Positions 7,887 through 62,203 of a DNA stretch of 64,000 nucleotides are shown here, piece by piece. The notes beneath the pieces were generated by a model that ran no database searches, was not told the DNA's origin, and saw nothing but the letters and a program-made list of their open reading frames with translations. Origin of the DNA: a virus (taxonomy: Duplodnaviria > Caudoviricetes); IMG/VR virus record IMGVR_UViG_3300029286_001711. The stretch is one strand, 5' to 3'. Position 1 is the stretch's first letter. Each line of letters opens with the position of its first letter. The translations under genes were made by a program, and so were the position numbers.

Positions 7887-7890
7887 GGTT

Positions 7891-8277
7891 TTATAGTTCT
7901 AAAGTAACAAAATCAGTTTCTTGAAAAGTATTTGTTGTAACCGTATAACTTAATTTAACTACAACAGCATGATTATTACTTTCAGATGGTGTTGTAGTTA
8001 GTTCGGTTATTAGTAAATTTGGAATATACTTTTTAATAGCCTCATTTATTTCGTTTCTTATACCCGTATATGAGGGTTCATCGTTTTGTTCAAAAAGATA
8101 TTGTCTTAAATTAGCACCAAAATCTGGCATATATAATCTCTCTCCTCTGTTAGTTAATAATAAATGTACCAAATCAGCTTTTATAGCTTTTTTAGTATCG
8201 TTATTCATTTCTAAGAACTTACCGTCTGGATCATCCGTAAAAGGAAATTGAATGTTTATGAATCTTTGTTGTGCCAT
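7891..8277 (-). CDS. Baseplate wedge protein, gp25/GPW-like
   Basis: IKADLVHLLLTNRGERLYMPDFGANL is the gp25 signature. 128 aa. Confidence 0.9.
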   Translation of the reverse strand: MAQQRFINIQFPFTDDPDGKFLEMNNDTKKAIKADLVHLLLTNRGERLYMPDFGANLRQYLFEQNDEPSYTGIRNEINEAIKKYIPNLLITELTTTPSESNNHAVVVKLSYTVTTNTFQETDFVTLEL

Positions 8278-30742: not shown

Positions 30743-33502
30743 TTAACTAGCCATCCCTCTTTTGGAATATTCGTGTGTGGAGAAAATCATTTTGGCAAGT
30801 TCTTCTTTTTGTGCAGAATTTAATTTACTAAGGTCTATTTCCGTACTACTACCATTCTTACCCGTTAATTCTATTTCCCCATCCACTGTAAGAGACTCAT
30901 CGAATTTAATTGTTGTGGTACCACCTAACAATGACAACCATTGTGCAAGTTCCTTTAAAGAGTTTAATTTGTCGGTATCTACACTATTTATCGCACCTAC
31001 AGATGAGGCAAGTGTAGAACCCATTTTTGTTAACATCATTATAATTGGTAATCCAACTATGGCTGTAGTGGTTAAACCAAACATAGCTTGACCTAATTTT
31101 TCAACACCCATTGCCATTACCATAAAACCAGTACCCGCGGAAATTAAACCAGAACCATCACCACCGATAGCTGTACTAAATTGAATTAATGGTGCCGTGA
31201 CAGCACTTAATCCTAACCCCAATACTAATAAGGCACCCCCTAAAGCTATCATCGCTATAATACCAGCACCAAATAAAACAGCTCCAATACCAGTTGCCAT
31301 CAGTAAACCCAAACCAAATATTGCGGCTGTGAAAACCACTAACGCAACCCCAGCTATCGCTAGAGACTCCCAAGATAGACCCTGCATAAGACTCATACCG
31401 TAAGCAAACGGTATTAATGAGGCACCAAGTAGTGTTATCGCAATAGCCCCTTCAATCATAGAACCAGAGGCTTTACCGATTAACCAAGCTGCAACACCCA
31501 ACACCGTCAAACCGACAGCGGCCTGAGCCAATGTTTCCCAACCGTTTTGTAATTTATCAAATTCTTGTAGGGCTTTAGCAAACACAAATAATGCGGCCGA
31601 CAAGATTAAAATTGCGGCAGCCCCCTTAATCATATCCATTGGATTAAGACCCTTTGTCATCTGACCCGGCCCATTATCTATTGCAGGACCTTGTGTTACT
31701 CTAGTTAAACCCCCCCCAGCGTTTCTCTTAAAACCACCAGATTGACTTTTTAAAAAGTCTTTAGTATTTGTAGATAGTCCACCTTTACCTGTGGTTCCCG
31801 CCTGGAAACCTTTTGTAGATAGTCCACCTTTACCTGTGGTTCCCGCCTGGAAACCTTTCGCCATTTCTAATCCAGCTTTAAAATGTTTCCCAGTTCCAAA
31901 AAACCCCTTAACAATATCTATAGCTTTAAAGACCTGCATACCAGCCCAAAGTAGGGTTACAGCACCTAGGAATATACCGATACCCTTAGTCCAAGTTTTA
32001 ATGGAACCCATAAATTCAGTGATTTTGGTTGTCAAAACATCAACGCCGGGTTTAAGATATTCCTGTAAAGCTTGTAACAAAGGCCATGTTGCCATCATTA
32101 ACTGATCTAACACACCCTGCCACTGTTGTCTCATACTAACAGCATCCTTCTGACTTTTATCAGCTAATTTTCTTTTTTCCATTAAAACTTCAGCATCACC
32201 CTTAGTAAGTTCAGACAGTTTTTTTATGTTAGCAGTACCATCTTTATTAAACCCTACTTGAATTGTACCGTCAGCATCAGCTAACCCACTTAACATATCT
32301 ATCTGTTCTTGATCTAATCCCTTACCTTTTAATAAACCCTCAAACATGTTTATTTTAGCACCCTGTTTAGCTGTTTTCACTAACTCTTCATAACTAATAC
32401 CTAAAGCGGCACCAGCTTCTTTTAACCTATCTAATTCATAGGCGTTAACCTTCCACTCACCCGTGGTTTTATCAAAAGTTGCTGAGGCTGTCGCAGCCTT
32501 AGTTAAACTTTTAGCCAACTCCTCTGGTGAATTACGTGCTTTATACATTAATTGGAATGGGTCACCTAATGAGGATAACGAACCACCTAAGACTTGTAAT
32601 TGGGCCGCGGCCTCAATAGCACCCTCGGGTCTGAATACTTTATCAGCTACCGCTGCCACAGAATTCATATCTAATTTATATTTCTCAGAATATTTGGACA
32701 TTGCCATCATTCCTTTAACACCGTTCTTAAAGTTTAATTTATTCATTAAACCTAAATTTGATTGAAAACTTTTAAGTACCTTGGCTGAGTTAACACCTAT
32801 TGATTCAGCATCAGAAGAAAGTTGTGTTACCAACTCAACAGACTTTGTCGCTCCCAAACCAAACGCCTCCATTTGAGCTGCCATTTGAGAAATACCATCA
32901 ACACCCAAACCAGTTTTGGTTCCTAGTATAGCCATATTCTCAAGGGCTTGTTCACTTAATATAACGGAACGACCTAATTCGTCAGAATAAGAACCTTGTG
33001 CCTCAGCTAGAGCTGTAGCAGATACACCCCACGCAGCGGTTTTCATTCCGGCATTAATGATGTTGGTTTGCATGACACTCATCCTTTGACCAGATATACC
33101 CATGGTATTAGCTGTTTTACGAACAGCCTCATCAAAATCAAACCACTTAGTTAAAATATTACCTACTACACCTAAAAACTGTTTGTCTAAAATGTTAGCG
33201 CTAGCTTTAAGTAGGGAACCTTGTTTCCTTAATTCTTTATTAACTTCTAATAGTTGGTCGTATTCTTTTCTTAAAACCTTAGCCTTTTTTAACGACTCCT
33301 TTGTACCCTCTTTTTCTAATTCGAGGATTTCTGCTTGCATTGTTTTAAGTTCTTTCCATATCTTACCAATCTTTGCTTGCCATTCAGCATATGATTGTAT
33401 GGAGTCTACCTGACTCTTAAAGTTCTCCTTAATGTCTTGTTGAATTTTGAGAAACTCTATTTCGTCCTTTTTGTTTCTTTTAAAGTTACCTTCGTTCGCC
33501 AT
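30743..33502 (-). CDS. Tail tape measure protein (919 aa)
   Basis: Long Ala/Leu/Gly-rich helical protein with periodic hydrophobic segments in the C-terminal third, located downstream of the tail chaperone and upstream of the baseplate genes. Confidence 0.85.
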   Translation of the reverse strand: MANEGNFKRNKKDEIEFLKIQQDIKENFKSQVDSIQSYAEWQAKIGKIWKELKTMQAEILELEKEGTKESLKKAKVLRKEYDQLLEVNKELRKQGSLLKASANILDKQFLGVVGNILTKWFDFDEAVRKTANTMGISGQRMSVMQTNIINAGMKTAAWGVSATALAEAQGSYSDELGRSVILSEQALENMAILGTKTGLGVDGISQMAAQMEAFGLGATKSVELVTQLSSDAESIGVNSAKVLKSFQSNLGLMNKLNFKNGVKGMMAMSKYSEKYKLDMNSVAAVADKVFRPEGAIEAAAQLQVLGGSLSSLGDPFQLMYKARNSPEELAKSLTKAATASATFDKTTGEWKVNAYELDRLKEAGAALGISYEELVKTAKQGAKINMFEGLLKGKGLDQEQIDMLSGLADADGTIQVGFNKDGTANIKKLSELTKGDAEVLMEKRKLADKSQKDAVSMRQQWQGVLDQLMMATWPLLQALQEYLKPGVDVLTTKITEFMGSIKTWTKGIGIFLGAVTLLWAGMQVFKAIDIVKGFFGTGKHFKAGLEMAKGFQAGTTGKGGLSTKGFQAGTTGKGGLSTNTKDFLKSQSGGFKRNAGGGLTRVTQGPAIDNGPGQMTKGLNPMDMIKGAAAILILSAALFVFAKALQEFDKLQNGWETLAQAAVGLTVLGVAAWLIGKASGSMIEGAIAITLLGASLIPFAYGMSLMQGLSWESLAIAGVALVVFTAAIFGLGLLMATGIGAVLFGAGIIAMIALGGALLVLGLGLSAVTAPLIQFSTAIGGDGSGLISAGTGFMVMAMGVEKLGQAMFGLTTTAIVGLPIIMMLTKMGSTLASSVGAINSVDTDKLNSLKELAQWLSLLGGTTTIKFDESLTVDGEIELTGKNGSSTEIDLSKLNSAQKEELAKMIFSTHEYSKRGMAS
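31767..31858. repeat. Perfect 45-nt tandem duplication inside the tape measure gene
   Basis: Two identical 45-nt units (31767-31811, 31812-31856) encoding KGFQAGTTGKGGLST twice. Confidence 0.95.
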
Positions 33503-35373
33503 TATCTATTTTTTAGTATTAAGACCCCTTCAAAAGGTTCTTGTGGATAACCCAAAGCTTTCTTACCTATTAAAACATCAATAGGTTTAGAAGAGGTCCA
33601 ATTAATTAGACCACCATCTTTTGGTTTTACCATTAAAAACCCATCACCAGATCCTGATTTTTTGATAATGATAGAAAAGTTTTCACCTTTATCACCACTC
33701 ATACTTTTTCTAATCTCTAGGTTTTGATCACCCTGATTAAATAAATTTATTATTTCTTTTACGTTTAAATCGGAAGGGGTATCAGATTTTTCAACATCAT
33801 ATAACCTACCAATAACTGGGTAAAATTTCTTATCCTCCATTGAGGTATTGGTTAACGGCTTACCTTGTTCACCCCCTTTACCCCCACCGCCATAAGTGGT
33901 CTCAATATCACCATCTTTTTTAGCTTTACCCTTTGGACCTAAAACTATACCCTTTAAATATATTTTTGCTGTTGTATTAGATTTTTTTTGATCTTCGTCA
34001 GCTTCAAATATTAACTCTGTATTATCTGATATGTAACGATAAAAATCTTCTGCCACTCCAGTATTTGACATTGACGCCTTTGGCATGTTTTTTACTTTCA
34101 CATTCTTACCACTATTTTGTTTCCCATTACCTTTAATCATTTCGGATAGTTTTGAAAAACTAACTAAAAAGTTTTTAAAACTTCCTACTAATTTTTTCCA
34201 AAGTTGTTTTCTTGTTTGTACATCGGCAATACTAGTTTTACCCTTAGTAGCTATAAAGTATAGTTGTTTATAGAAATCTTTAATAACTTGAAAAGTTTGT
34301 GAGTTTCTACCATTTTTTGCTACCTTAGCGAAAATAGAAAAAACATCGAACATAAAATTCTGTAGGTTTAGTTTAACCTTTAAATATTTTCTTTGATTAC
34401 CAGACATTGAAGTTGGTGCTTCTAATAACCCTTGTGATTTTAAACCCTTTAAGGCTGTTAAAAGTGGTTGTTGATTTATTTTAATAGATTTTGTCCCATC
34501 AATAATAGCATCTAAAAAAATCTTTTGGAATTCTGGGTCGTCTTTGTACGCTGTTAATATGTTAAACCAACGAGCTTTATCTTTCGTACTGGAAAGCTTA
34601 GCGTTAACCTCCTTTAAATCTTTTCCGTTATAAAAATTACCTTCCTTTTCATTCTGAGTAGAATTATTATCTTCTCCACCTTTTTTAATATTTTTTCTAT
34701 TAACGATAACGGTACCACCCTTACCATCACCTATCGTAAAATTATCACCGTCTATTTTAGTAATACCACCTTTACCGTTCTCTCCACCATCAGTTGTAAA
34801 ATCAACCGTATCACCCACTTTGTATTCCTCACCCTCTGTTTCTAAATCACCACTTTTTATTGTGGTAACAAAAGAAGGACCAAACTCTACCGTATAAAAT
34901 TTACCCTCACTTTCACCCACAGCTAAAGCAATTATTTTTTTCTTGGTACCTGGTAATACAGTATAGACCTCATTACTTTCAGTAAATTTTATTAAAAAAG
35001 TTGATTCACTATTTTGTGGTTTGAATTCTAAAATTAAATTATTAGAATCTTTAACAACCCTAGCTAATCCAGTAAATGTTTGTGATTTTGGTAGTGTTAG
35101 TTCCTCTGGGTTATCTAATAAATCCTGTAAAACGTAACTTAATTTAAAAGGTTCAACAGATAATTGTTGTATTGAAAAAATAGTGTCTAGTTCTGGTAAA
35201 TTAACACCCATACGAGCCATTATTTCTTTAGCTCTTCCAGCGGCCATCTCACCTCTAGCTCCAGATGCTGCAGCCTCATCACCAGTAACTGAAGTTGGTT
35301 TAGCTTCAGTCATGATATATTCTAACAGTATCTTGTCTGATGTGACTTTTTTAATTAAGGTATTAATGCTCAT
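33502..35373 (-). CDS. Hypothetical protein (623 aa), candidate internal head/ejected protein
   Basis: Own late motif. N-terminus TLIKKV...ILLE. Central KOW/SH3-like segment (YKVGDTVDF...). Lys-rich. Confidence 0.55.
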   Translation of the reverse strand: MSINTLIKKVTSDKILLEYIMTEAKPTSVTGDEAAASGARGEMAAGRAKEIMARMGVNLPELDTIFSIQQLSVEPFKLSYVLQDLLDNPEELTLPKSQTFTGLARVVKDSNNLILEFKPQNSESTFLIKFTESNEVYTVLPGTKKKIIALAVGESEGKFYTVEFGPSFVTTIKSGDLETEGEEYKVGDTVDFTTDGGENGKGGITKIDGDNFTIGDGKGGTVIVNRKNIKKGGEDNNSTQNEKEGNFYNGKDLKEVNAKLSSTKDKARWFNILTAYKDDPEFQKIFLDAIIDGTKSIKINQQPLLTALKGLKSQGLLEAPTSMSGNQRKYLKVKLNLQNFMFDVFSIFAKVAKNGRNSQTFQVIKDFYKQLYFIATKGKTSIADVQTRKQLWKKLVGSFKNFLVSFSKLSEMIKGNGKQNSGKNVKVKNMPKASMSNTGVAEDFYRYISDNTELIFEADEDQKKSNTTAKIYLKGIVLGPKGKAKKDGDIETTYGGGGKGGEQGKPLTNTSMEDKKFYPVIGRLYDVEKSDTPSDLNVKEIINLFNQGDQNLEIRKSMSGDKGENFSIIIKKSGSGDGFLMVKPKDGGLINWTSSKPIDVLIGKKALGYPQEPFEGVLILKNR

Positions 35374-35384
35374 AATGATTTCTT

Positions 35385-35393
35385 TATAAATAT
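35385..35393 (-). promoter_or_regulatory. Putative late promoter motif ATATTTATA
   Basis: 11 nt upstream of ATG 35373, just after a terminator. Confidence 0.6.
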
Positions 35394-35403
35394 CACTTAA
35401 ATT

Positions 35404-35430
35404 AAAAATGGGACTTTCGTCCCATCTTTT
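35404..35430 (-). terminator. Rho-independent terminator after the chaperone frameshift product
   Basis: Stem ATGGGAC/GTCCCAT, GAAA loop and U5 tract on the minus strand. Confidence 0.8.
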
Positions 35431-35630
35431 ATCTTGATTTTCCTTTTGTTTTAGCTTTGTCGTATTCTTTCTTTTGTTCTTCTAATTCTTGTTGCCACAT
35501 GTCGAGATAGATTCTTCTTTCCCAGATTGGCATACTTAACGTTGATTCGTAAGAAAATCTCATATGTTTTACCATATAATATATTTCTCTTTTAAGACCT
35601 AAATTATACTCTGACGTTAGGCCAAAAAAA
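35429..35630 (-). CDS. C-terminal extension of the tail assembly chaperone (gpT-like), probably reached by frameshift
   Basis: Frame FFGLTSEYNLGLKREIYYMVKH...SMPIWERRIYL overlaps the chaperone end at a U7 run. No start codon covers its first ~17 residues other than one far upstream at 35710. Confidence 0.7.
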
Positions 35631-36383
35631 GTTGAGTCCGAGGGTAATTGGAGCTTGAAATGTGCCTGTCGGTCCCTCCACTTCGGCCGACATCTCAATT
35701 CCTGGTTCAATGTTATCTGAATATTCTCTAAATTTAAGAGAATCGAATGCTGGCATCACATTAACGAATTGTTGAATGTAATTAGAATCCCTATTACCAT
35801 CAACTTCTTTAATTTGTGCTTGTAACCTATATGTTAATGTGTTTGAAATTTGAGACTTTGTTGCTTTCTCATATTTATCAGCCCTATTAACAATAGAACG
35901 TTCATCACCAACAGTTAATAATGTAAATTTAATTTTTTTCTTACTTCTAGGTAAATCAAAAGAGAACTCACCTCTTTCATCTGGTGTTACACCATCTGGT
36001 AATTCTTTTGAGGCTAAAGCACTTAAATCGAATTCATGTTCAAATTCAACACCACTTGTAGGATCTGTTATTTTAACTGGGTACATCTCACCGTATCCTG
36101 TTGCTCTTAACCAAATCATAATGGCGTTTCTATCGCCAACTAATAATTGGTCGAAAGGTACTGGGGATTCTTTAATCTTTCTTTCTAACAATATTTCAAT
36201 GGCTTTACCATTCTTAATTAAGTTAGGTGATGTTAGGATGTTCTCATCCATTGCTGTCATATATTCCACTTTAACTGTACCAACCTGTCCAGGATACAAT
36301 AACCCCTTAGATGGTAAAGGTAGAACGTCAAACGGAGCTTGGAATTGAATATCTTGAGCTTGTTGTTGATTTTGTTTTGACAT
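35604..36383 (-). CDS. Tail assembly chaperone / T4 gp26-like baseplate hub assembly protein (259 aa)
   Basis: LPLPSKGLLY, YMTAMDENILTSPNL, LLVGDRNAIMIWLR and LGLNFFWP motifs. Upstream of the tape measure gene. Confidence 0.75.
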   Translation of the reverse strand: MSKQNQQQAQDIQFQAPFDVLPLPSKGLLYPGQVGTVKVEYMTAMDENILTSPNLIKNGKAIEILLERKIKESPVPFDQLLVGDRNAIMIWLRATGYGEMYPVKITDPTSGVEFEHEFDLSALASKELPDGVTPDERGEFSFDLPRSKKKIKFTLLTVGDERSIVNRADKYEKATKSQISNTLTYRLQAQIKEVDGNRDSNYIQQFVNVMPAFDSLKFREYSDNIEPGIEMSAEVEGPTGTFQAPITLGLNFFWPNVRV

Positions 36384-36451
36384 ATTAAAAACTTTTTTTA
36401 ACTTTGTTATTCAGAATAACTTTAAAACTATATCTATAATTGTAAAGGTTC

Positions 36452-36459
36452 TATAAATA
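36452..36459 (-). promoter_or_regulatory. Putative late promoter motif TATTTATA
   Basis: 68 nt upstream of the chaperone ATG, in a divergent intergenic region. Confidence 0.45.
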
Positions 36460-36492
36460 AATACATTATTTTCGGTTTTTTCTCGTGAAAGA

Positions 36493-36524
36493 TTTGTTCT
36501 TTCTGAGAATTATTATTATCTTTA
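36493..36524 (+). promoter_or_regulatory. Bacteroidota-type housekeeping promoter (TTTG-N20-TATCTTTA)
   Basis: -33 TTTG at 36493-36496 and -7 element at 36517-36524, 21 nt before ATG 36546. Confidence 0.55.
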
Positions 36525-36545
36525 CGTATAAATCTAAACAAACAT

Positions 36546-37565
36546 ATGAAAATGACAGAAGATAAACTTAATCGTTTAAAAGAAGTGCTTTCAGTTCCTA
36601 CTTATTCTAGGGATGAAGCACTCATGATTGAGTATTTGAGAAAGACGTTAACAGAAAAAGGGTATGAACCGACCGTTGACGAGTGGGGGAATGTTTATGT
36701 GACGAAAGGTACCGCAGAATGGTATCCTTGTTTTATTGCACACACAGACACAGTACATAAGGTGAATGAAAACTTAGTTATCATTCAGGAAGAAAAGAAT
36801 GGTGAAACTATTCTTAGAGGTATCGATAAAACGAACAACATGCCATCAGGATGTGGTGGTGATGATAAATGTGGTGTGTACTTATGTCTTGAAATGTTAG
36901 ACACATTACCAAACGTTAAAATAGCTTTATTTGTTTCGGAAGAAATTGGTTGTAAGGGTAGTCAATACGCTGACCCAGAGTTCTTCAAGAATGTTGGTTA
37001 TGTAATTCAATACGATTCTCCTGAAGGGGATTCAATGAGTTTAACATTAATGGGTAGATACTTGTTCAACCAAAAATCAGAATTTTCTGATAAGGTTTCT
37101 GGTTTAATCAGAGAACATGGTATTACAAATTGGGCTTATCACCCTTATACCGATGTTTGGCAAATATTTGAGAAATTTAACATCGCATGTTTGAATTTAG
37201 CAGCTGGTTATTACAGAATGCATTCTGACAATGAATATGTAAAAGTTGATGATGTTCAAAACGGTTATGAACTTGGTTTGAAATTACTTGAACAACTAGG
37301 TGAAAACAGATACGAAAACCCAAAAGAAGAAAGAACATATTCTTGGAATGGTGGTTACGGTACTGGTAGTTATAAAAAGACCCAAAAACCCGATACTGGT
37401 GGTCAAAAACTTCTTACTGAAGGTAAGGAGAAAGATGGTGATGAAAAAGAATATGATGATTGGGCCGACCTTTTTAATAGTGGTGAGTATCTATATACAA
37501 ACCGTGATAAGGGTGGATCTTCTTATTATGGTCGTCACTGGGATGAAGACAGATTTAATTGGTAA
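36546..37565 (+). CDS. M20/M28/M42-clan zinc peptidase
   Basis: AHTDTVH, GGDDKCG, SEEIGC, QYD and HSDNE metal-ligand pattern. Confidence 0.85.
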   Translation: MKMTEDKLNRLKEVLSVPTYSRDEALMIEYLRKTLTEKGYEPTVDEWGNVYVTKGTAEWYPCFIAHTDTVHKVNENLVIIQEEKNGETILRGIDKTNNMPSGCGGDDKCGVYLCLEMLDTLPNVKIALFVSEEIGCKGSQYADPEFFKNVGYVIQYDSPEGDSMSLTLMGRYLFNQKSEFSDKVSGLIREHGITNWAYHPYTDVWQIFEKFNIACLNLAAGYYRMHSDNEYVKVDDVQNGYELGLKLLEQLGENRYENPKEERTYSWNGGYGTGSYKKTQKPDTGGQKLLTEGKEKDGDEKEYDDWADLFNSGEYLYTNRDKGGSSYYGRHWDEDRFNW

Positions 37566-37567
37566 AC

Positions 37568-37595
37568 AAAAAAGGGACTTAAAAGTCCCTTTTTT
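37568..37595. terminator. Bidirectional terminator between convergent genes
   Basis: AAAAAAGGGACTT-AA-AAGTCCCTTTTTT. Confidence 0.85.
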
Positions 37596-37597
37596 AA

Positions 37598-38236
37598 TTA
37601 TTCATTACTACTTCTTTTATACTCGGCAAATTCATCATCGTGTTTTTTGATTGTTTTACCAACAACACCACCTGCGGCAGCTGCCGCAACAACCCAAATT
37701 AAAGGTATTAAATAAGTTTTAGGGTCTTCAAGGTTACCACCACCAGTCATTACACCAGCACTAAATAAAGAACCAAGAACAGTCCCGAGAGTACCACCTA
37801 TACCAGCACCACTCAATGGTGTAACTTTACTGCCCATTAAATAATCGTTTTTATCTTCTTTCTTTTCAACCTCTGAATCGGAAGATTCGATATCACCTTT
37901 ATATGTTGGTAATGGTTTATCTTCAACTTCATTAACTGAATAACCTTCTGAAATAGAATCTACAGCTGGTTTTACAATGGAATCAATAGATTCACCATGT
38001 TTTATTGCTTTTACTGACTGAACTAAAACCTCTTTTGGTACACCCATTGAGATTAATTCTTTGATGGCTTTTTTAAGGGTTTCTGGGTCTGACGCTAAAT
38101 CTTTAGCGATATCTTGTACTTCTTTATTTTGTGATAAAGAATAATCCTCTTTTAATAATCCCTTAGATTTTAAGTAAGAATTTTCCACCCTTTGATTGGC
38201 TTCCATAATTACTTTTAATTTATCTTGTTTTCTCAT
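37598..38236 (-). CDS. Leader-bearing protein with a C-terminal glycine-zipper transmembrane hairpin (212 aa)
   Basis: N-terminus MRKQDKLKVIME...LLKE. C-terminal GAGIGGTLGTVLGSLF and LIPLIWVVAAAAAGGVVG hydrophobic segments. Confidence 0.6.
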   Translation of the reverse strand: MRKQDKLKVIMEANQRVENSYLKSKGLLKEDYSLSQNKEVQDIAKDLASDPETLKKAIKELISMGVPKEVLVQSVKAIKHGESIDSIVKPAVDSISEGYSVNEVEDKPLPTYKGDIESSDSEVEKKEDKNDYLMGSKVTPLSGAGIGGTLGTVLGSLFSAGVMTGGGNLEDPKTYLIPLIWVVAAAAAGGVVGKTIKKHDDEFAEYKRSSNE

Positions 38237-38248
38237 TGTGGTTTTATT

Positions 38249-38256
38249 TATAAATA
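38249..38256 (-). promoter_or_regulatory. Putative late promoter motif TATTTATA
   Basis: 12 nt upstream of ATG 38236. Confidence 0.55.
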
Positions 38257-38257
38257 G

Positions 38258-39631
38258 TTATAACATTTGATATGTTAGGTATAATCCTGGAAAGTAAGCT
38301 GCGATTTCACGTCTCTTAGTCCAATGGTCAATGTTTTCTAAATGTTCGTATTGTTGACCCCAAAGATAATCATAGGGTAAACTTTGTGAGTATTCTATTA
38401 ATTTTTTACCAATACCTAACCCTTTATACTCTGGGTCAATACCTAAAGCCACGCCCTCAACACCATCTAAATTTTGGAATTCCATTGGATTAACCTTAAT
38501 TGAACCTGGGTTTTTTTCTTCACATTCTTCTGGCGAGTAACAATTATAATCTCTTTGCATATAGTGTAACATATAATCAGCAATTTGATTTTCAGCTAAA
38601 AAATAAAATCCAACCACCTTACCTTGATAAGTTGCTTTAACAGATATATCCCAATCGGTGGCCTCAGAAAGGTATTTTATTAATGCCTTTGGTGTCATTT
38701 GACCCTCAAAAACCTTCAAACCAACTCTTAAGGCGTCAAGAATCTCATCTTCATCTTCAAAATTAGATATTTCTATTCCTTCAGAATATGTTTTTTTATC
38801 TTCTGGAAATTCTATTTCTAATTGGTTTGGATCACCATCAACCTCTTCCTCCTCATCACTAACATAATCATCACCATCTTTTAACCAACTAACAAATTCT
38901 TCTGCAAATTGTTCAATAGATAAATCCGTTACATCAACCTCATTTGAAAATTCTTGTACTTCAGCGACATTTGCTGTAACCCCATGAACAGATTGTAGTT
39001 CATGAATAAAATAACTAATATCCTCGTCAGTCCAATCCTCCCACCATTCTTTTTCGGTGGTTTCAGATTCTTCTGTCATAAAATCTTCTCTCTCATCTTC
39101 TGGAAACTCTTCATCTTCTATATCATCATCTGGATATATATCTTCATTGGCATTTGTTATTTCATAATAAAAATATTCACGTATTTTGTCTCTACCAGAG
39201 AACCAAATCTCATCAAATCCATCAATTTCATAAAGTAATCTACCCAACCAAGGATCGTTTACCATAAGTGTATCATGGTCATAATCAACAACAATAATCC
39301 AATGTGGTGTTCCTTGAACGTTTGCTCTAACAACACAAGGGTGTCCTTTGTCGATAGAGTCTTTAAGTGATTGATAAGGATCTTCTTCACTCATATGTTC
39401 AATATATTCAATACCCATGTATTTAAGACCTTTGACCATTCTATCAGGAGGTGTTCCAACAACCCAATCAGTACCACAAGCACGACATATATCAGATATT
39501 TTAAACCTGTTACCAACAAAAAAATCGTGAACCATCTTTAAACAAGTCGGACCACAACTATTTCCTGTTGGTTGATAGTGATGTGGGACTTGTATTTCGG
39601 ATAATATTTTTTTAATTCTACTCCTCACCAC
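38258..39631 (-). CDS. C39-like cysteine peptidase - acidic linker - GNAT acetyltransferase fusion (457 aa)
   Basis: QPTGNSCGP, PHWIIV and VNDPW (Q/C/H/D papain-like set) at the N-terminus. VEGVALGIDPEYKGLGIGKKLI (GNAT motif A) at the C-terminus. GTG start. Confidence 0.75.
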   Translation of the reverse strand: MVRSRIKKILSEIQVPHHYQPTGNSCGPTCLKMVHDFFVGNRFKISDICRACGTDWVVGTPPDRMVKGLKYMGIEYIEHMSEEDPYQSLKDSIDKGHPCVVRANVQGTPHWIIVVDYDHDTLMVNDPWLGRLLYEIDGFDEIWFSGRDKIREYFYYEITNANEDIYPDDDIEDEEFPEDEREDFMTEESETTEKEWWEDWTDEDISYFIHELQSVHGVTANVAEVQEFSNEVDVTDLSIEQFAEEFVSWLKDGDDYVSDEEEEVDGDPNQLEIEFPEDKKTYSEGIEISNFEDEDEILDALRVGLKVFEGQMTPKALIKYLSEATDWDISVKATYQGKVVGFYFLAENQIADYMLHYMQRDYNCYSPEECEEKNPGSIKVNPMEFQNLDGVEGVALGIDPEYKGLGIGKKLIEYSQSLPYDYLWGQQYEHLENIDHWTKRREIAAYFPGLYLTYQML

Positions 39632-40064
39632 TTATAATTTGATTGCGTAATTCTTCAATTGTTGAATTTAGTTCATCTATTTGACTTTTTAGGTCATCAA
39701 TTTCTTCCTGCCTTTCTTCCCTACCCTCTTCACGTGCTGTATCTTCTCTATCAGAAACCACATCTTCATATACATAATCGTCACAACATCCATCACAACT
39801 ATAGTCGTAATTATCTTGCGCGTAAGTGTATGTATTATCAGCTTGTTGATATACGTATTCCCCAATTTCTTTTAATTTTTCTAAATCGTGGACACCAGCA
39901 CCAATCAACATTTGATAAAGTCCCTCACCCCCAAAGTCATAATCATGGTCAGCTTTTATGAAATCTTTTTTAATCTCTTTTTCGGCAATATGAACATCAA
40001 GATCCTTAACCCATTCAAAATGGTCTTCCTGTTCTTTTAATATTTTCTTAATTAAATCTCTCAT
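39618..40064 (-). CDS. Acidic CxxCC coiled-coil protein, paralog 2 (148 aa)
   Basis: MRDLIKKILKEQEDHFEWVKD, SCDGCCDD, C-terminal heptad coil. Confidence 0.7.
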   Translation of the reverse strand: MRDLIKKILKEQEDHFEWVKDLDVHIAEKEIKKDFIKADHDYDFGGEGLYQMLIGAGVHDLEKLKEIGEYVYQQADNTYTYAQDNYDYSCDGCCDDYVYEDVVSDREDTAREEGREERQEEIDDLKSQIDELNSTIEELRNQIISGEE

Positions 40065-40075
40065 TAACCTTCTTA

Positions 40076-40567
40076 TTAATTTAAATCATCGTTACTACCA
40101 GCTAATCTAGCCTGTAATTCTTCAATTTGTTCTTCTAATTCCTCAATTTTATCTTGCATTTCAGATTTTCCTGCTTCATAACCCGTCTCTTGACCCTCCT
40201 CATAACCTTCTTCACGAGCCTCTTTTTCTTTTTCTCTCACATCATCGATATAATACATGTCATCACAACAATAATCACAACCACAGTCATTTTGTCCACT
40301 ATCATATCCACTATCATAAGCTCTATAATAAGAACGACTAAATTCCTTTTTAATTTCCCTACCGATTTCAGTTAAATCTTCTGGTCTTGTGATACCCTTT
40401 TCTATTAATAAAGGTACCATTTCACTTACAAAATCGGTACTATATTCGTAATCCATATCTCTAAAAGGTTGTATAACAAGTTTTTCAGCCTCACTAGGGT
40501 TTATATCTTTCACCCAGTCAAACTCGTTTTCTTGTTCCTTTAATATCTTACGGATTAAGTTTTTCAT
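40076..40567 (-). CDS. Acidic CxxCC coiled-coil protein, paralog 1 (163 aa; start at 40567)
   Basis: MKNLIRKILKEQENEFDWVKD, CGCDYCCDD, EEGYEEG repeats, heptad coil. The late motif and a terminator lie inside the track's longer start, so ATG 40567 is preferred. Confidence 0.7.
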   Translation of the reverse strand: MKNLIRKILKEQENEFDWVKDINPSEAEKLVIQPFRDMDYEYSTDFVSEMVPLLIEKGITRPEDLTEIGREIKKEFSRSYYRAYDSGYDSGQNDCGCDYCCDDMYYIDDVREKEKEAREEGYEEGQETGYEAGKSEMQDKIEELEEQIEELQARLAGSNDDLN

Positions 40568-40572
40568 TTCTT

Positions 40573-40581
40573 TATAAATAT
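40573..40581 (-). promoter_or_regulatory. Putative late promoter motif ATATTTATA
   Basis: 5 nt upstream of ATG 40567. Confidence 0.55.
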
Positions 40582-40593
40582 CGATGGAATCAT

Positions 40594-40624
40594 AAAAAAT
40601 CCCCACCTTTTGAGTGAGGATTTT
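40594..40624 (-). terminator. Terminator after the tail tube gene
   Basis: Minus strand ATCCTCAC-TCAAAAG-GTGGGGAT with one G-U pair, then a U tract. Confidence 0.75.
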
Positions 40625-40645
40625 GTATAATTTGTTGTAAAATAA

Positions 40646-41134
40646 TTAGAATACGTGAATAGCTCTATCGAAACGTAAAGTTCCAGTAATTTCAGCAATT
40701 TCAGAAGTTGAATAATCTAACCCACCAAAGTCAACGTTTGTTAACATTGTACCTTGAAGAATCCATTTTTCAATTACAACACCTGTTGGGTCTAATAATT
40801 CTAATTCAATGTCTTTCTTATAACCAGCTGCATAACCTTGACGACCTGTTACTGATTCAGAGTGAAGACGTACCCACTCCATAATTGCTTGTGCCGCTGA
40901 AGGACCAATTGGGTCACGGAATGTAACGTCAATAGTATCCCAAGTAAAACGACCAATTACCCAAGTTGATGTGTTAAGAAATTGAATTTCTGTTTCCTCT
41001 TGAGAAATTTTAGGTCTTGATGCTGTTTTCACAAACCACTCTTGAATTCCAAGAGGTGAAGGGAATCTAAGTATGAATCGGTTCTGCTTTTTTGGTTCGT
41101 AAGGAACCGGCATCCTCATTAGTAAATCTGCCAT
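40646..41134 (-). CDS. Tail tube protein, T4 gp19-like
   Basis: YEPKKQNRFIL, GRFTWDTIDVTFRD, GYAAGYKKDIELELLDPTG and EKWILQG motifs. 162 aa. Confidence 0.9.
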   Translation of the reverse strand: MADLLMRMPVPYEPKKQNRFILRFPSPLGIQEWFVKTASRPKISQEETEIQFLNTSTWVIGRFTWDTIDVTFRDPIGPSAAQAIMEWVRLHSESVTGRQGYAAGYKKDIELELLDPTGVVIEKWILQGTMLTNVDFGGLDYSTSEIAEITGTLRFDRAIHVF

Positions 41135-41170
41135 AGTAATGTCTTTTTGTTTAAGTTGTTATCTTTTTAT

Positions 41171-41179
41171 TATAAATAT
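41171..41179 (-). promoter_or_regulatory. Putative late promoter motif ATATTTATA (second copy at 41219-41227)
   Basis: Two copies upstream of the tail tube gene. Confidence 0.55.
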
Positions 41180-41254
41180 GCTCTATTTTATTTTTAGCAG
41201 ATTGACTGCTAATTTTATTATAAATATCATTGTTTAAACAAAATTTATATAAAC

Positions 41255-41959
41255 ATGTTAAACGAATTCGAAAAATTTGCAATTAAAGACCAAGGGGTTG
41301 GTTCTAACACGTTGCACGCTTACCAAAACTTTATGTCAGAGGTTCCTGTGACAATCCAAGGTAGTATGACTCCCTATGTCTTGGAAGAAAGAGAAATGAG
41401 AGCAACACAAATTGATATCTTTTCTAGATTGATGATGGATAGAATCCTATGGGTTGCTGGTCCAGTAAATGATAGAATGTCTACGGTTGTACAGGCACAA
41501 CTTTTATTCTTAGACCAACAAGACCATAAGAAAACCATTACGATGCATATAGACTCACCTGGTGGGTCTGTGAAGTCAGGTTTGAGTATTGTTGATGTAA
41601 TGGAATACATCAAAGCCCCAATCGCCACCATTAATACTGGTATGGCGGCATCAATGGGTTCAGTTTTATTGGGAGCTGGAACAAAAGGTATGAGAAGTTC
41701 CTTAAGATTCTCAAAAACAATGTTACACCAATCAAGTGGTGGAGCAATGGGTAATATCCAAGACGCCCGTATCACAATGAAAGAATGGGAAAAAACCAAT
41801 GAAATTCTTTTTGAATTATTGGGTGGTTATTGTGGTAAAACTCGTGAACAAGTTGCTGACGATGCTTCACGTGATTTATGGTTATCAGCAGACGACGCTT
41901 TAGCGTATGGAATTATTGATGAAGTTATTAAACCTTTACAAAAAACAATTAAAAAATAA
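41255..41959 (+). CDS. clpP: ATP-dependent Clp protease proteolytic subunit
   Basis: DIFSRLMMDRI, IDSPGGSV, GMAASMG (Ser), LHQSSGG (His) and SRDLWL (Asp). N-terminal extension EFEKFAIK...MTPYVLEER resembles Bacteroidota ClpP. Confidence 0.95.
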   Translation: MLNEFEKFAIKDQGVGSNTLHAYQNFMSEVPVTIQGSMTPYVLEEREMRATQIDIFSRLMMDRILWVAGPVNDRMSTVVQAQLLFLDQQDHKKTITMHIDSPGGSVKSGLSIVDVMEYIKAPIATINTGMAASMGSVLLGAGTKGMRSSLRFSKTMLHQSSGGAMGNIQDARITMKEWEKTNEILFELLGGYCGKTREQVADDASRDLWLSADDALAYGIIDEVIKPLQKTIKK

Positions 41960-41963
41960 TAAG

Positions 41964-42425
41964 ATGAAAAAATTTTTAGCATTAATAGTAGGGGTTCTAT
42001 TCTTAACTTCTTGTAGTAACAACTATTCAAACGGTGAACGTATTGGAACAGTAAACAAACTTGCCAAGAAAGGTCTTATTTGGGATACATGGGAAGGTCA
42101 CCTTAACATTACCCAAACAGGAATGACCTCAACAGATAGTTGGGATTTTTCGATTGATAATGATAACGAACCAGATGGGTTGGTGGCACAATTGGATAGT
42201 GCGGCTGAATACGGTTGGAAAGTTAAACTTACATATACTCAAGTGTCTGGATGGAATTGGCTTGGTAATCGTGGTGAGACGGATTATTTTGTTAATAAAA
42301 TGGAAGTTCTTGAGAAAAATTTTGGAAACACCTTTAACGGTAAATCAGAAAATCCAAAAGAAGTTACTGGAAAAGTTATTGACACAATATATGTTGTCAT
42401 AGTGGATAAGAGTAGATTAAAATAA
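41964..42425 (+). CDS. Phage lipoprotein (153 aa; start at 41964)
   Basis: MKKFLALIVGVLFLTSC lipobox with Cys17. Confidence 0.75.
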   Translation: MKKFLALIVGVLFLTSCSNNYSNGERIGTVNKLAKKGLIWDTWEGHLNITQTGMTSTDSWDFSIDNDNEPDGLVAQLDSAAEYGWKVKLTYTQVSGWNWLGNRGETDYFVNKMEVLEKNFGNTFNGKSENPKEVTGKVIDTIYVVIVDKSRLK

Positions 42426-42448
42426 AGACGTTCGACACGTTATAAAAC

Positions 42449-42480
42449 AAAAAACCCTAACAGTAATGTTAGGGTTTTTT
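42449..42480. terminator. Bidirectional terminator
   Basis: AAAAAACCCTAACA-GTAA-TGTTAGGGTTTTTT. Confidence 0.85.
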
Positions 42481-42497
42481 TATATCTAATAATTTAA

Positions 42498-43124
42498 TTA
42501 TCCACCTACTACTCCACCTGGTCCACCAAGTTTAGAACCTAGACGTTTAAATTCTTTTTCTTCATCGTTCCATTCAGCGTTTTTACCGTTACCAGCAAGG
42601 ATAGGAAGACCAGCGTTAGCTTTCATAAATTTCATAACAGCGTTTTTGAAATCTTGAACATCACCGTTAGCATATGCTTTTGACATCTTTTCAGCGTTTT
42701 TAACATAAACTTGGTTCCAAGCTTGTTCAGCTTTCTTTTGGTCCCATCTGTGACCCATCCATTTCATAAGTTTGTCCCACATTTCACCAACACCCTCGTT
42801 CATTAATTCTTTGCTATAGTGTTCTCTAACCATTTTGGCTTTGTTTGAATGGGTTGCTTTAGCTGAAGACATATGTTTTTTTGCGTCAGCTGCTTGAGGT
42901 AATTTCTTTTGAAGTTTTCCTGCCGCAGGAACCCCTTCACCTTTTTCTACCATCTTACCTGACATCTTATTTTTAATGTGTTTTTTTGCCTCAGCACCTT
43001 GTGAAGGGATGTGGTTCTTAACTGGAGCCTTCTTATTGTTAATTGAAGCTGCCTCCATAACAAAGTTCTCAACTACTCTTTCAAGTTGTTCTTTGTTGAT
43101 TCTATATCTTTTTACAGTTGCCAT
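42498..43124 (-). CDS. Basic leader-bearing hypothetical protein (208 aa), candidate inner-head protein
   Basis: RYRINKEQLERVVENFVME N-terminus. Internal repeat AEAKKHIK / ADAKKHMS. LMNEG site. Confidence 0.6.
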   Translation of the reverse strand: MATVKRYRINKEQLERVVENFVMEAASINNKKAPVKNHIPSQGAEAKKHIKNKMSGKMVEKGEGVPAAGKLQKKLPQAADAKKHMSSAKATHSNKAKMVREHYSKELMNEGVGEMWDKLMKWMGHRWDQKKAEQAWNQVYVKNAEKMSKAYANGDVQDFKNAVMKFMKANAGLPILAGNGKNAEWNDEEKEFKRLGSKLGGPGGVVGG

Positions 43125-43131
43125 TTTTGTT

Positions 43132-43320
43132 TTAGTATTTGTATTTGAAGTTAGTAAGCTTATTAAATTGAGCTAATTCTTTCTTAAAATCTTCAGTAAG
43201 AACTTCAGCTTTAACCTTTGATTCTGTAACAACCTTTTTTTTAGGAGTTTCAATGCCTGCCTTTTTAAGGGTACTTTCAATAAGTACATCAAGGTCTTTC
43301 TTTTTAACAATTTTTGACAT
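43132..43320 (-). CDS. Small basic hypothetical protein (62 aa)
   Basis: Preceded by the late motif. Contains LIES, VTES and LTED sites. Confidence 0.6.
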   Translation of the reverse strand: MSKIVKKKDLDVLIESTLKKAGIETPKKKVVTESKVKAEVLTEDFKKELAQFNKLTNFKYKY

Positions 43321-43334
43321 GTTTTTTGTTTTTA

Positions 43335-43343
43335 TATAAATAT
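43335..43343 (-). promoter_or_regulatory. Putative late promoter motif ATATTTATA
   Basis: 14 nt upstream of ATG 43320, just after the sheath terminator. Confidence 0.6.
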
Positions 43344-43355
43344 GTTTATATTAGT

Positions 43356-43386
43356 AAAAGAACCTATTTTTACATAGGTTCTTTTT
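43356..43386 (-). terminator. Terminator after the tail sheath gene
   Basis: AAAAGAACCTAT-TTTTAC-ATAGGTTCTTTT inverted repeat. Confidence 0.8.
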
Positions 43387-43394
43387 ATAATTTA

Positions 43395-46164
43395 TTAGAT
43401 ATTATCAAATGATGCTCCAGTTGTAGTTACGTTGAACTCGATAATAATGAATTCTAATGATGGGATAGGTTTTAAGAAAATCTTACCTCTCATTTCATTT
43501 CTATCGATTTCTTCTGGGTCGTTAGATAATTGTACCCTAAAGTCTGCTAAACCTCTTTCTTTTCTGATATTATCCAAGATTGGGTTTACTAAGTTCAAGA
43601 ATTGATTTCTAACGATTTGGTCATTTTGTTCGAATAACAATCTAACACCAACTGCTGTAATTAATTTACGAGCTTGTAATAATAATCTTCTGATATTTAA
43701 TCTGTCAAGAACAGAATCTTTAACCTGTAAGTTTTTATTACCCCAAATTACAACACCCACATCTGAGAAAGTTGCCATTGGATTAACACGTCCTTCATAT
43801 AAAGTATCTCTATCATCTTCAGTTAATTTAATTCTAGCTTGAATAGCGTTTGTAAGACCTCTATTGTAACCAGCTACTGCGTACCAAGGGAAAGCGACAT
43901 TATCGGTTAATGCAATATTCTTACAAACTTCTAATGTTGGTGGTAACCAAATGTTAACAGTATTTTCAGTGTCTCTTTTCTTGTACCCAAGGCCAGTATG
44001 TGGCTGTGTAGTTAGAATCAATATCCGCTGCGTCTAATAAATTAACAAGTGCATCTGCCGTATCAATTGATACAGAATTAAATCCAATACCCACTAATTG
44101 GTCAGCGGTATCATAAGTAACATTCTCAGGAGAAGTTACAATATAAACTGAGTCAGCTCTTTCTTCTTCGATTAAATCGATTGTTTCTTGAACAAGATAG
44201 TTGTTATCAGTATAGTCAATCCCAGGAGATGCGAACACGTTAATGTTAACCGCTTCAGGGTTTTTAAATGTATTGATAGCGTTCCAATAAGCGTATAAAT
44301 CGGATGTACCGTCTTGTGGCCCTAATTGGATAAATTGTCCTTGTGCTACACCAGTTGTGAAACCAACTTTACCAACTCTATATCTATCAGTATTAGTCCT
44401 ACTTCTTCTGTAACAATCCCAACCATCAAATCCAAGATACGGAACGAAAGTGAATTTTCTTGCTGAAATACTTTCATAATCAGTACCTTCGATACCCACA
44501 CCATCTCTGAATTGGTAAAGACCACATTCAAAATTACCAGCTACAGTAGCTCCACTATCCATGTGGAAACCTTTAGTTGTTGCTGTCCAATAGTTATCAC
44601 CGTTCGTTAAACCTTTCCAGTTAAACATATCTTCGTCGATACCTAAAGTATCAGTAATACCAAGGTATACCTTTTTAATTCTTTCATTCTCAGGGAAGTA
44701 TTGAATCTTATAGTCAATCATCGGAGCTAATGCAGTACCGTTAGTACCTACATAATTACTTACGATATAACCTTCAAAACCAGCTGTGAAAGCGTCAATT
44801 GGTGCGTTAGCGTTCATAACCAACATTACGAATCTACTGTTTAATACGTTTTCTCCATCAGCGGTACCGATTCTTCTTGCAACATAGTTGTTTGAAGATG
44901 GGTCCATGTTACACTTAGGGTAACTTTCGAGGATAGACGGTCTTGCGTCAGTATCATTCCATTGTCTAATAATAATATCAAACTCTTTTGTATCTGGCTT
45001 AATATTTTGAATAGAGATTTTTATTTCTTGATTTGCTGATGAACCATCAGAAATTGAAATAAATTTAAATAATTTAACAACAACATTACCTCGTAATTCA
45101 GATACAACCCAAGGTGTTTCTGGTGTTTGATATTGTTGTTTATAGTTACTATTATATGGTATATAAATTAAATCTTCTTTTAAACCCATAATGTAACCGT
45201 TATCAATTAAATCTTGTGTGTTGTTAGTATAAATTTCATCAACATAAACTAAACTACCTCTATCGTGACAATCAACACCTAATACTCCAGGTATGTAATT
45301 TCTACTTGTTTTATCAAGAGATACATCATATGTGAAAGTACTACCAGTTAAACCTACTGAGGATGCTGATAATACAAATTGTCCTAAAGGATTTGTTAAT
45401 GCTCCTGTCATATTAGCAACTAAACCATTAATCGATTGGTCTGTACTCCAATTTAGGATATCACTAATATATCTACCTCTAGATCTTAAAACCGCTAATA
45501 CCATACCTTCATATGCTGTATAAGCACTTGCAATGTAAGTTGTAACAGTACCAGAAATAGTACCACTTAATCCAGATAAATTTGAAAGAAGTACCGTTGC
45601 TGAAACACCAGTAAATGAACCAGCTTGTTTACTGAAAACAATACCTTGTGGGTATGTTACCGAAACACCTGGTACGTTAGCTGTTGTTAATGTTGGACCA
45701 TTAGGAAATAAACCTAATGTGTATAAATATTGTGCGTTAATATTTGTGATATTCGCGTAAGTACTACCAGTAAAATCAGCAGTAAATAAGGTTGTAACAC
45801 CAGTAATAATTGTTGTTGGGTCGTAACCAGCTTCAGAAACTACTGCCCAAGCATCACCAGCGTCAAAACCAGTTAATCCTAGAGTTCTAGTTACGAATAA
45901 TTGATTTGATTCGGTTAAATAACTTTTTGCAATATAAGATGTCTCATATTTTGGTTTACCGTTATCAAATTTTTCTGGATTTAAACCACCGAAAATTGTT
46001 AAATATTCATTATAATTTGTAATGAATATTGGTTCGAAAGCTGGTCCTTTGACAGTCTCACCTGCGAGACCCAATGTAGTTACACCAACTTGTTGTGCTA
46101 CAAAGGTTAAATCTTTTTCTGATGTAAATACACCTGGTGATACAAATACTTTTTGTGAAGCCAT
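43395..46164 (-). CDS. Tail sheath protein, T4 gp18-like, split by a single frameshift at about 43976-43979
   Basis: N-part VSPGVFTSEKD...ATYWPWVQ joins C-part RDTENTVNIWLPPT...WYAVAG...DRLNIRRLL...IFLKPIPSLEFI. The span is 2770 nt = 923 codons + 1, so removing one A from GAAAAG restores one ORF. Confidence 0.88.
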
Positions 46165-46202: not shown

Positions 46203-46211
46203 TATAAATAT
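46203..46211 (-). promoter_or_regulatory. Putative late promoter motif ATATTTATA for the sheath gene
   Basis: 38 nt upstream of ATG 46164. Confidence 0.55.
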
Positions 46212-61819: not shown

Positions 61820-62203
61820 ATGAAACTTTACTCTATCTTAAATGAAGTTATTTTAGAGGCAGCTAGTAGAATGGAAGTAGAGAGGGCGATAACAAATCAC
61901 CAACCAATCAGAATCTATTATCAAGGCGACGATACTATTAACGCAGGTGAAAGGGATATCGAACCTTATGTATTAGGTCTTTCAAAAGCTGGCAACCCTA
62001 TACTTCGTGCATATCAATATAGAGGTGTTACAGATACTGAACAACCAGGATGGAAGACTTTTTTATTGGATAAGATTAGGGATTGGGATGAAGTAAGTTT
62101 TCCTTTTAGGTCACCTATTTCAGATAGATCACGTAACGCACAAAAATATAATGATAGAGGTGATAAGAGTATGATAACAATTTATAAACAAGCAAGGTTT
62201 TAA
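61820..62203 (+). CDS. Stand-alone WYL-domain protein (127 aa)
   Basis: AI....IRIYY...GERDIEPYVLG...LRAYQ...GWKTFLLDKI matches the WYL pattern. No HTH domain. Confidence 0.7.
   Translation: MKLYSILNEVILEAASRMEVERAITNHQPIRIYYQGDDTINAGERDIEPYVLGLSKAGNPILRAYQYRGVTDTEQPGWKTFLLDKIRDWDEVSFPFRSPISDRSRNAQKYNDRGDKSMITIYKQARF

Follow-up and report, generated by a model that had tools for sequence, protein, structure and literature searches.

Why do unrelated late proteins of a single phage open with nearly the same eleven residues? The question is raised by IMG/VR virus record IMGVR_UViG_3300029286_001711, a stretch of 64,000 nucleotides (nt) with 33 % G+C, which was analysed over its whole length (hereafter, the window) and belongs to a large myophage that is uncultured. 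Three adjacent late genes on its minus strand, situated straight after the tail tube gene, are headed by an 11-residue leader, M-[KR]-x-L-I-[KR]-K-I-L-x-E, designated class A. The leader is N-terminal, portable and under selection at the peptide level, and it has a sharp boundary after Glu11. Judging from these sequences, it is probably a capsid targeting sequence (CTS) of the kind known from phage T4, removed afterwards by cleavage.

The class-A leader genes of the window

The features that bear directly on this question are the following (aa, amino acids; HMM, score with a hidden Markov model of the leader).

40646–41134, minus strand: tail tube gene, without leader (phrog_4542 at 5.5e-30)
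40574–40581, minus strand: late motif ATATTTAT, 6 nt before ATG 40567
40076–40567, minus strand: acidic protein of 163 aa (leader codons 40535–40567; HMM 19.0 bits)
39618–40064, minus strand: 148-aa paralogue of the 163-aa protein, by alignment (leader codons 40032–40064; HMM 18.9 bits)
38258–39631, minus strand: C39 cysteine peptidase joined to a GNAT domain (Pfam C39_2, 5.9e-9; GNAT match weak)

The 163-aa protein begins M-K-N-L-I-R-K-I-L-K-E at ATG 40567, which is its true start rather than GTG 40606, because the late motif falls within the extension. Behind the leader come an acidic D-F-x-W motif, a CxCxxCC cluster and a C-terminal coil, and a low-confidence fold predicted from a 15-row alignment consisted of helices only, with a mean pLDDT of 57, too weak a model for comparing folds. 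The 148-aa protein begins M-R-D-L-I-K-K-I-L-K-E (ATG 40064), and alignment of the two shows acidic paralogues that share the cysteine cluster and the coil. The leader of the C39-GNAT protein is a degenerate class A, [M]-R-S-R-I-K-K-I-L-S-E, counted from the second GTG (39628). This codon is probably the start, because the 11-residue leader then matches those of the orthologues, one of which, 94 % identical, begins M-K-S-L-I-K-K-I-L-S-E. The catalytic segment Q-P-T-G-N-S-C-G-P begins five residues past the leader. In this protein and its closest relatives (443–457 aa) a long, very acidic insert separates both domains; most homologues (302–345 aa) lack it.

Portability of the leader and selection on its sequence

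Using the tube protein as the anchor, we found 576 relatives in IMG/VR; the contigs that carry them reach 380 kb. The leader HMM (11 residues) was run on stop-to-stop open reading frames (ORFs) of the window and of 80 related loci and gave 84 matches at the threshold of at least 10 bits, from 40 sources and with 58 distinct N-termini. A start codon opens 83 of the 84 (78 Met, 5 GTG), the single exception being an extended form with the leader about 15 residues in. Four residues, I5, I8, L9 and E11, do not vary among the 53 distinct leaders compared (53/53 each for L9 and E11), and the information content lies at 1.9–5.6 bits over positions 1–11, at about 1.5 bits at position 12 and below 1 past position 19.

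Three related contigs, assembled from 20-kb pieces, served for counts at the genome scale; G001 and G002 are complete genomes.

G001, 318 kb, 414 ORFs: 17–20 class-A leader genes
G002, 380 kb, 463 ORFs: 15 genes of class A, 13 of the shorter class B (M-N-I-K-K-I-I-K-E-E) and 4 of class C
G003, 299 kb, 392 ORFs: zero class-A genes

Similar pairs of N-terminal 12-mers number 137 in G001 and 133 in G002, against 5 and 7, respectively, for the control of residues 41–52. The leader genes of G001 are scattered over at least eight regions, head module included. The proteins that bear leaders are equally varied: after removal of their first 28 residues, 55 of them fell into 46 BLASTP body clusters, with Pfam domains that include PolyA_pol (a CCA-type nucleotidyltransferase), phage lysozyme, PAP2, AAA_33, SprT-like and two mycobacteriophage families. 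In G003, twelve ORFs between 186 and 254 kb (loci L123–L126) seemingly start M-[QH]-[VI]-K-F-I-S-F-I-F-V; their real start is probably a Met some 17 residues further in, and the shared start is therefore a conserved DNA element upstream of the gene block, perhaps an early promoter.

How far such motifs exceed chance depends on how strictly they are defined. A loose [IL]-x-E is present in 23–25 % of any 25-residue stretch, and with this background it was rejected as stand-alone evidence; in the window it is not significantly enriched (N-terminal 16/48 vs. 162/718, p = 0.07). A strict 8-residue motif is enriched at N-termini both in the window (2/48 vs. 0/718, p = 0.004) and in G001 (19/336 vs. 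4/3292, p = 9e-17), and in the related genomes the loose and the strict motif alike are enriched there. The premise of the initial annotation that the motif is commoner at N-termini than elsewhere thus holds for the strict form and for the related genomes, and not for the loose form in the window.

The C39-GNAT body offers the converse of one leader on many bodies. It has 156 homologues in a collection of 5.8 billion proteins, in which the catalytic domain is conserved and the segment that precedes it is lineage-specific. Elsewhere at least three other leader classes occur, including one ending R-I-K-x-I-M-G-L-N-E and another reading M-K-K-x-I-I-T-E-x-Q-Y-K-x-L-V-K. Among 100 distinct pre-domain segments (mean 21.5 residues), 89 contain [ILM]-x-E, against a background of about 23 % per 25-mer, and the last such site lies 5–8 residues before the catalytic Gln in 56 cases and 11 residues before it in 28. 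The leaders are therefore lineage-specific, and the constant element is an x-E site whose position ahead of the mature domain is fixed. Of 25 adjacent genes on a contig from a different lineage (L150), at least 15 open with one of three such leaders. That the leader is a portable tag on unrelated bodies, as first proposed, is thus confirmed by the 46 body clusters and by the different leaders found on the one C39-GNAT body.

The site behind the leader is also reused away from N-termini. An acidic D-F-x-W stretch follows about half of the class-A and class-B leaders, and a unit composed of [IL]-x-E, S, x, D-F-x-W and [VA]-x-D-[IV] repeats every ~110–140 residues inside very long modular ORFs.

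G002, 109811–113575: very long modular ORF (locus L134)
G001, 40204–42819: very long modular ORF (locus L098)

Additionally, one G001 protein carries a full leader internally, at residue 144. These internal linker copies fit a protease site, not a start-codon feature. The very long ORFs of both contigs are candidate polyproteins that the head protease might cut.

Comparison of 29 class-A genes by codon position gave identities of 0.81, 0.83 and 0.61 at positions 1, 2 and 3 of codons 2–11, with 0.32–0.38 for codons 12–21 and 0.35 for the 40 nt upstream; of the codon pairs that encode identical amino acids, 36 % differ in codon. Selection thus acts on the peptide, from the ATG to Glu11, since the residues are kept although the third positions of their codons vary; this speaks against a purely translational role. 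Copying at the DNA level, with a promoter and first codons spread by recombination, was rejected on the codon-position test and on the background identity upstream.

The late motif occurs at several further places in the window.

35386–35393, 41172–41179, 43336–43343 and 46204–46211: further copies of ATATTTAT
38250–38257: variant CTATTTAT, 13 nt before the start at 38236

Copies of ATATTTAT lie 6–15 nt ahead of the starts at 40567, 35373 and 43320, and also ahead of the tube and sheath genes; the genes that start at 40064, 39631 and 43124 are operonic, without a late motif of their own. The initial annotation had placed most of its leader genes just behind this motif, which is correct for 40567, 35373, 38236 (with the variant) and 43320 and not for the three operonic genes. 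Of the leader genes of G001, 10/17 have the motif in the 60 nt that precede them, vs. 67/397 of the other genes (p = 2e-4); G002 shows no significant excess. In many leader genes of the window, G001 and G002 the motif ends 4–15 nt ahead of the ATG. If it resembles a T4 late promoter, it would imply mRNAs nearly devoid of a 5′ untranslated region.

Head protease, capsid cut site and the proposed function

A leader that is removed requires a protease, and the related phages carry a candidate. The Gp23 capsid family was detected in 5/5 large related contigs, and Peptidase_S77, the family of T4 gp21, above the curated Pfam cut-off in 4/5. The head modules of G001 and G002 share the order portal, small proteins, protease, small proteins, acidic scaffold-like protein and capsid protein. 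In G001 a 769-aa class-A gene adjoins the protease gene, located at L093:8057–8869, and a 281-aa class-A gene follows the capsid gene, and in G002 genes of classes A, B and C lie inside the module. The gp21-like protease beside the capsid gene that the T4 parallel of the initial annotation called for is therefore present in the relatives, as an S77 enzyme near the scaffold and gp23-type capsid genes.

The T4 enzyme cuts after L/I-X-E (PMC9026906), a rule that the invariant L9-x-E11 of the leader fits. T4 gp23 loses 65 residues (PMC9958956), and in a MAFFT alignment its E65 (F-L-T-E, then A) falls on the Glu of L-I-S-E (then T) in G001 and G002 and of M-L-N-E (then A) in G003. By this alignment, the capsid protein of the relatives is presumably cleaved at the corresponding site. 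The cultured but distant Flavobacterium phage vB_FspM_immuto_3-5A (L151, 110367–160366) has an S77 protease, and its capsid protein reads I-V-S-E at the aligned place; several leader-like N-termini occur near its head genes, and it could serve as an experimental model.

We thus propose a sequence of events in which, late in infection, the leader proteins would bind the assembling prohead core through a basic amphipathic helix, with M1, L4, I5, I8 and L9 on its hydrophobic face and K/R at positions 2, 6, 7 and 10. The gp23-type shell would then enclose them, the gp21-family (S77) prohead protease would cut after Glu11 (L-x-E) and free the mature protein in the head, and this protein could exit together with the DNA. 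Prohead-core binding, cleavage, presence in the virion and ejection are the steps that we infer. The relevant protease would be the S77 enzyme of the head module, found in the relatives, and not the ClpP of the window; ClpP as the maturation protease was rejected as the principal reading, since the relatives carry S77 beside the scaffold and capsid genes. In the window, the candidate cargo comprises the two acidic CxxCC coiled-coil paralogues, the C39 peptidase-GNAT enzyme and, by way of a second leader, a 212-aa protein described below. A complex prediction that paired the G001 S77 protease with residues 1–45 of a leader protein, run with no controls, scored 0.00, a value that weighs neither for nor against the proposal.

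Several points weigh against a T4-like targeting role. No recognisable head gene or S77 protease lies within the 64 kb of the window, and the leader is connected with the protease through relatives whose tube proteins show 81–88 % identity. The consensus M-K-N-L-I-K-K-I-L-K-E has just M-K and the final E in common with the T4 CTS. G003, with its S77 protease and gp23-type capsid protein, has no class A and only a few leader-like N-termini. The relatives carry 15–32 leader genes per genome (4–7 % of genes), far above the handful of T4, and for some of the enzymes, such as the CCA-type nucleotidyltransferase, the need for packaging is not obvious. The D-F-x-W motif is without a T4 counterpart or an explained role. 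To some extent it also counts that the leader genes of the window lie between tail tube and tape measure, outside a head module; this position is less weighty because the T4 tube gene is directly followed by portal, gp67, gp68, protease and scaffold genes, and because the leader genes of G001 are scattered.

Among the alternatives, the one that survives best keeps the cleavage: the leader would be a propeptide removed by the protease, and its bearers mainly proteins of prohead-core or scaffold type, or zymogens, instead of an injected payload. The two acidic paralogues, with their long C-terminal helix, do resemble the T4 core protein gp67 with its acidic run, the small leader genes right after the tube could be the counterparts of the portal, gp67, gp68, protease and scaffold genes that follow it in T4, and the 62-aa protein listed below has three [ILV]-x-E sites and looks degraded. 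We nevertheless consider this unlikely, since many bodies are enzymes (C39-GNAT, lysozyme, PAP2, kinase-like, nucleotidyltransferase), implausible as scaffold, and 46 unrelated bodies are too many for such a role. Some leader proteins may still be degraded prohead-core proteins rather than injected effectors.

Extracellular contractile injection systems load cargo by means of N-terminal signals; their cargo genes are tied to the tail/tube operon, and the signal is unlinked to a head protease. By analogy, the leader could be an uncut address or docking helix that acts elsewhere, in the tail lumen or baseplate, at the host membrane or on a common chaperone. The class-A genes of the window sit between tube and tape measure, helices of basic amphipathic form also bind membranes, and the cleavage of the leader is itself a prediction. 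This explanation is likewise unlikely: the 17–20 leader genes of G001 spread over its at least eight regions, including beside protease, scaffold and capsid genes, which is not the pattern of contractile-injection cargo, and the invariant Glu11, the drop in conservation behind it and the constant spacing between [ILM]-x-E and the C39 domain under different leaders all indicate a cut site rather than a surface for docking; the site moreover recurs as an internal linker.

N-termini of the type Met-basic-hydrophobic resemble one class of ClpX recognition motif, and the leader is of this type. A degron or recognition tag for the phage ClpP, which would time the destruction of the proteins, therefore deserves mention; the clpP gene (Pfam 1.3e-58) is separated from the tube gene by 120 nt and is kept in G001, G002 (two copies) and G003. 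This is a very improbable role, because G003 possesses ClpP yet lacks the class-A leader and because the invariant Glu, the internal linkers and the match to the capsid cut site would be left unexplained. Finally, an mRNA or translation feature, that is, an A-rich, unstructured 5′ end of nearly leaderless late transcripts, would suit the very A/T-rich leader codons and the late motif, which in many leader genes ends a mere 4–8 nt ahead of the ATG, and can hardly be correct given that third codon positions drift while amino acids stay, that operonic genes without a late motif bear the same peptide and that internal copies occur far from any start.

Read as a targeting sequence, the leader can be compared with several known systems. 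The T4 CTS is M-K-T-Y-Q-E-F-I-A-E, of 10 residues (bioRxiv 10.1101/2021.01.19.427310). Both are leaders of about 10 residues (11 here) at the extreme N-terminus of unrelated bodies, with an M-K start and an L/I-x-E end; both belong to phages with late expression of these genes and a cargo set that varies among relatives, in clades that possess a protease of the gp21 family and a capsid protein of gp23 type with its site in the homologous position. In contrast, the leader is basic and amphipathic, so that it would be CTS-like in action and not a sequence homologue, a single genome can hold three or more classes of leader, D-F-x-W often follows the presumed cut site, and the unit is reused as an internal linker. 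The system, which the initial annotation had presented as undescribed, is therefore not new in kind: it applies the T4 CTS principle with another sequence and far more extensively. No account of this leader came up in our searches of the literature.

In phiKZ-like giant phages (phiKZ, 201phi2-1, SPN3US), ejection or inner-body proteins bear propeptides that are cut by gp175/gp245 and are thought to target the proteins into the prohead (PMC5694885, PMC7411985, PMC9026906). These propeptides are mostly longer than 100 residues and are cut at S/A/G-x-E, and their proteins form paralogue families (PMC5694885). The likeness would lie in the large set of proteins inside the head of a giant phage, cut after Glu by a diverged homologue of gp21; the leader studied here differs in its 11 residues, in the L-x-E it has in common with T4 and in its unrelated bodies, and the protease of the relatives scores directly on Pfam S77. 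The hypervariable internal-protein locus of T-even phages has CTS-like starts on diverse ORFs, with bodies thought to act in counter-defence (cited in PMC9026906 and PMC3012670). That locus resembles the present case in that bodies vary among related phages behind a retained leader, and differs from it in that here one body (C39-GNAT) also takes lineage-specific leaders and the genes are scattered instead of forming one locus.

If the proposed function is true, a simple rule (a leader class, an N-terminal L-x-E and S77 in the genome) would list the head-carried proteins of uncultured giant phages, which now requires virion proteomics of cultured ones. Candidates for early host takeover or counter-defence would be the papain-like peptidase-acetyltransferase and, in the relatives, proteins with lysozyme, phosphatase, kinase-like and nucleotidyltransferase domains. 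Leaders that swap on a constant body, and bodies that change behind a constant leader, provide a natural experiment on the co-evolution of targeting peptide and prohead core, and the 11-residue tag could be tried as a packaging handle, as was done with the T4 CTS. Since G002 combines classes A, B and C, and a different lineage classes E, F and G, we also considered that the several classes, together with the polyprotein linkers, might form an addressing code directing 4–7 % of the proteome to different capsid layers, copy numbers or exit orders. This idea is speculative and rather unlikely; were it true, such phages would deliver with their DNA a large, lineage-specific set of enzymes, among them proteases, acetyltransferases and RNA-repair-type enzymes, and leaders could reveal the packaged proteome of uncultured phages from sequence.

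Other leader-like genes and the surroundings of the window

The initial annotation had attributed one common leader to eight genes. This stands for those at 40567, 40064 and 39631/39628; the list of eight as a whole mixes at least three different leaders with some x-E sites at chance level. The other five genes, for which the case is weaker, are these.

37598–38236, minus strand: 212-aa protein with C-terminal hydrophobic segments; class-C leader of ~30 residues, with I-M-E, V-E-N and L-K-E sites
33502–35373, minus strand: 623-aa protein, upstream of the tape measure gene; N-terminal ~18 residues ending I-L-L-E
43132–43320, minus strand: 62-aa protein; conserved N-terminus ending L-I-E, and two more [VL]-T-E sites
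42498–43124, minus strand: 208-aa protein; first 24 residues ending F-V-M-E
61820–62203, plus strand: 127-aa protein of class-G pattern, starting M-K-L-Y-S-I-L-N-E-V-I-L-E, weak taken alone

The class-C leader, M-R-[RK]-x-D-K ... A-N-x-R-[LV]-E, is portable and recurs on 6 unrelated body clusters. The class-G pattern is kept by the orthologues of the 61820 gene in G001, G002 and G003 and also heads unrelated proteins in L150. The remaining three show conserved x-E sites only. The 623-aa proteins form one orthologous family whose N-termini vary, with L-x-E or I-x-E retained before a conserved P-x-S-G-D segment. The first 24 residues of the 208-aa protein are its best conserved part, in one orthologous family, and are not portable. 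Class D, the N-terminus of the 62-aa protein, was rejected as a portable tag, its bodies being one BLASTP cluster and one orthologous family. Searches with Pfam and PHROGs on the 623-, 212-, 208-, 163- and 62-aa proteins gave nothing above chance-level matches.

The tail genes that surround these loci are listed next.

6069–8277: baseplate wedge gene
30743–33502: tape measure gene
35604–36383: gp26-like hub gene
43395–46164, minus strand: tail sheath gene

Replication genes of the window encode RNR, a DnaB-type helicase, a UvsX-like recombinase and DNA polymerase. A megablast search of INPHARED with positions 33000–44000 yielded zero matches, and among cultured phages the closest, all of them distant relatives, are Flavobacterium phage immuto, Microcystis phage Mel-JY01 and Rhodothermus RM378. 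The sheath gene is broken into overlapping frames of 732 and 208 aa, with the junction near 43966–44021, close to the A-rich run G-A-A-A-A-G-A-G; in G001, G002 and G003 it is a single ORF of 921–1030 aa, and the break is either an assembly error or a genuine frameshift. Between the sheath and tube genes, on the opposite strand (41255–42425, plus), lie genes for the cellular-type ClpP and for a lipoprotein with a signal ending L-T-S-C-S-N-N. A peptidase of the M20/M42 family (36546–37565, plus; phrog_4191 at 4.5e-39) is likewise encoded on the opposite strand within the run of late genes.

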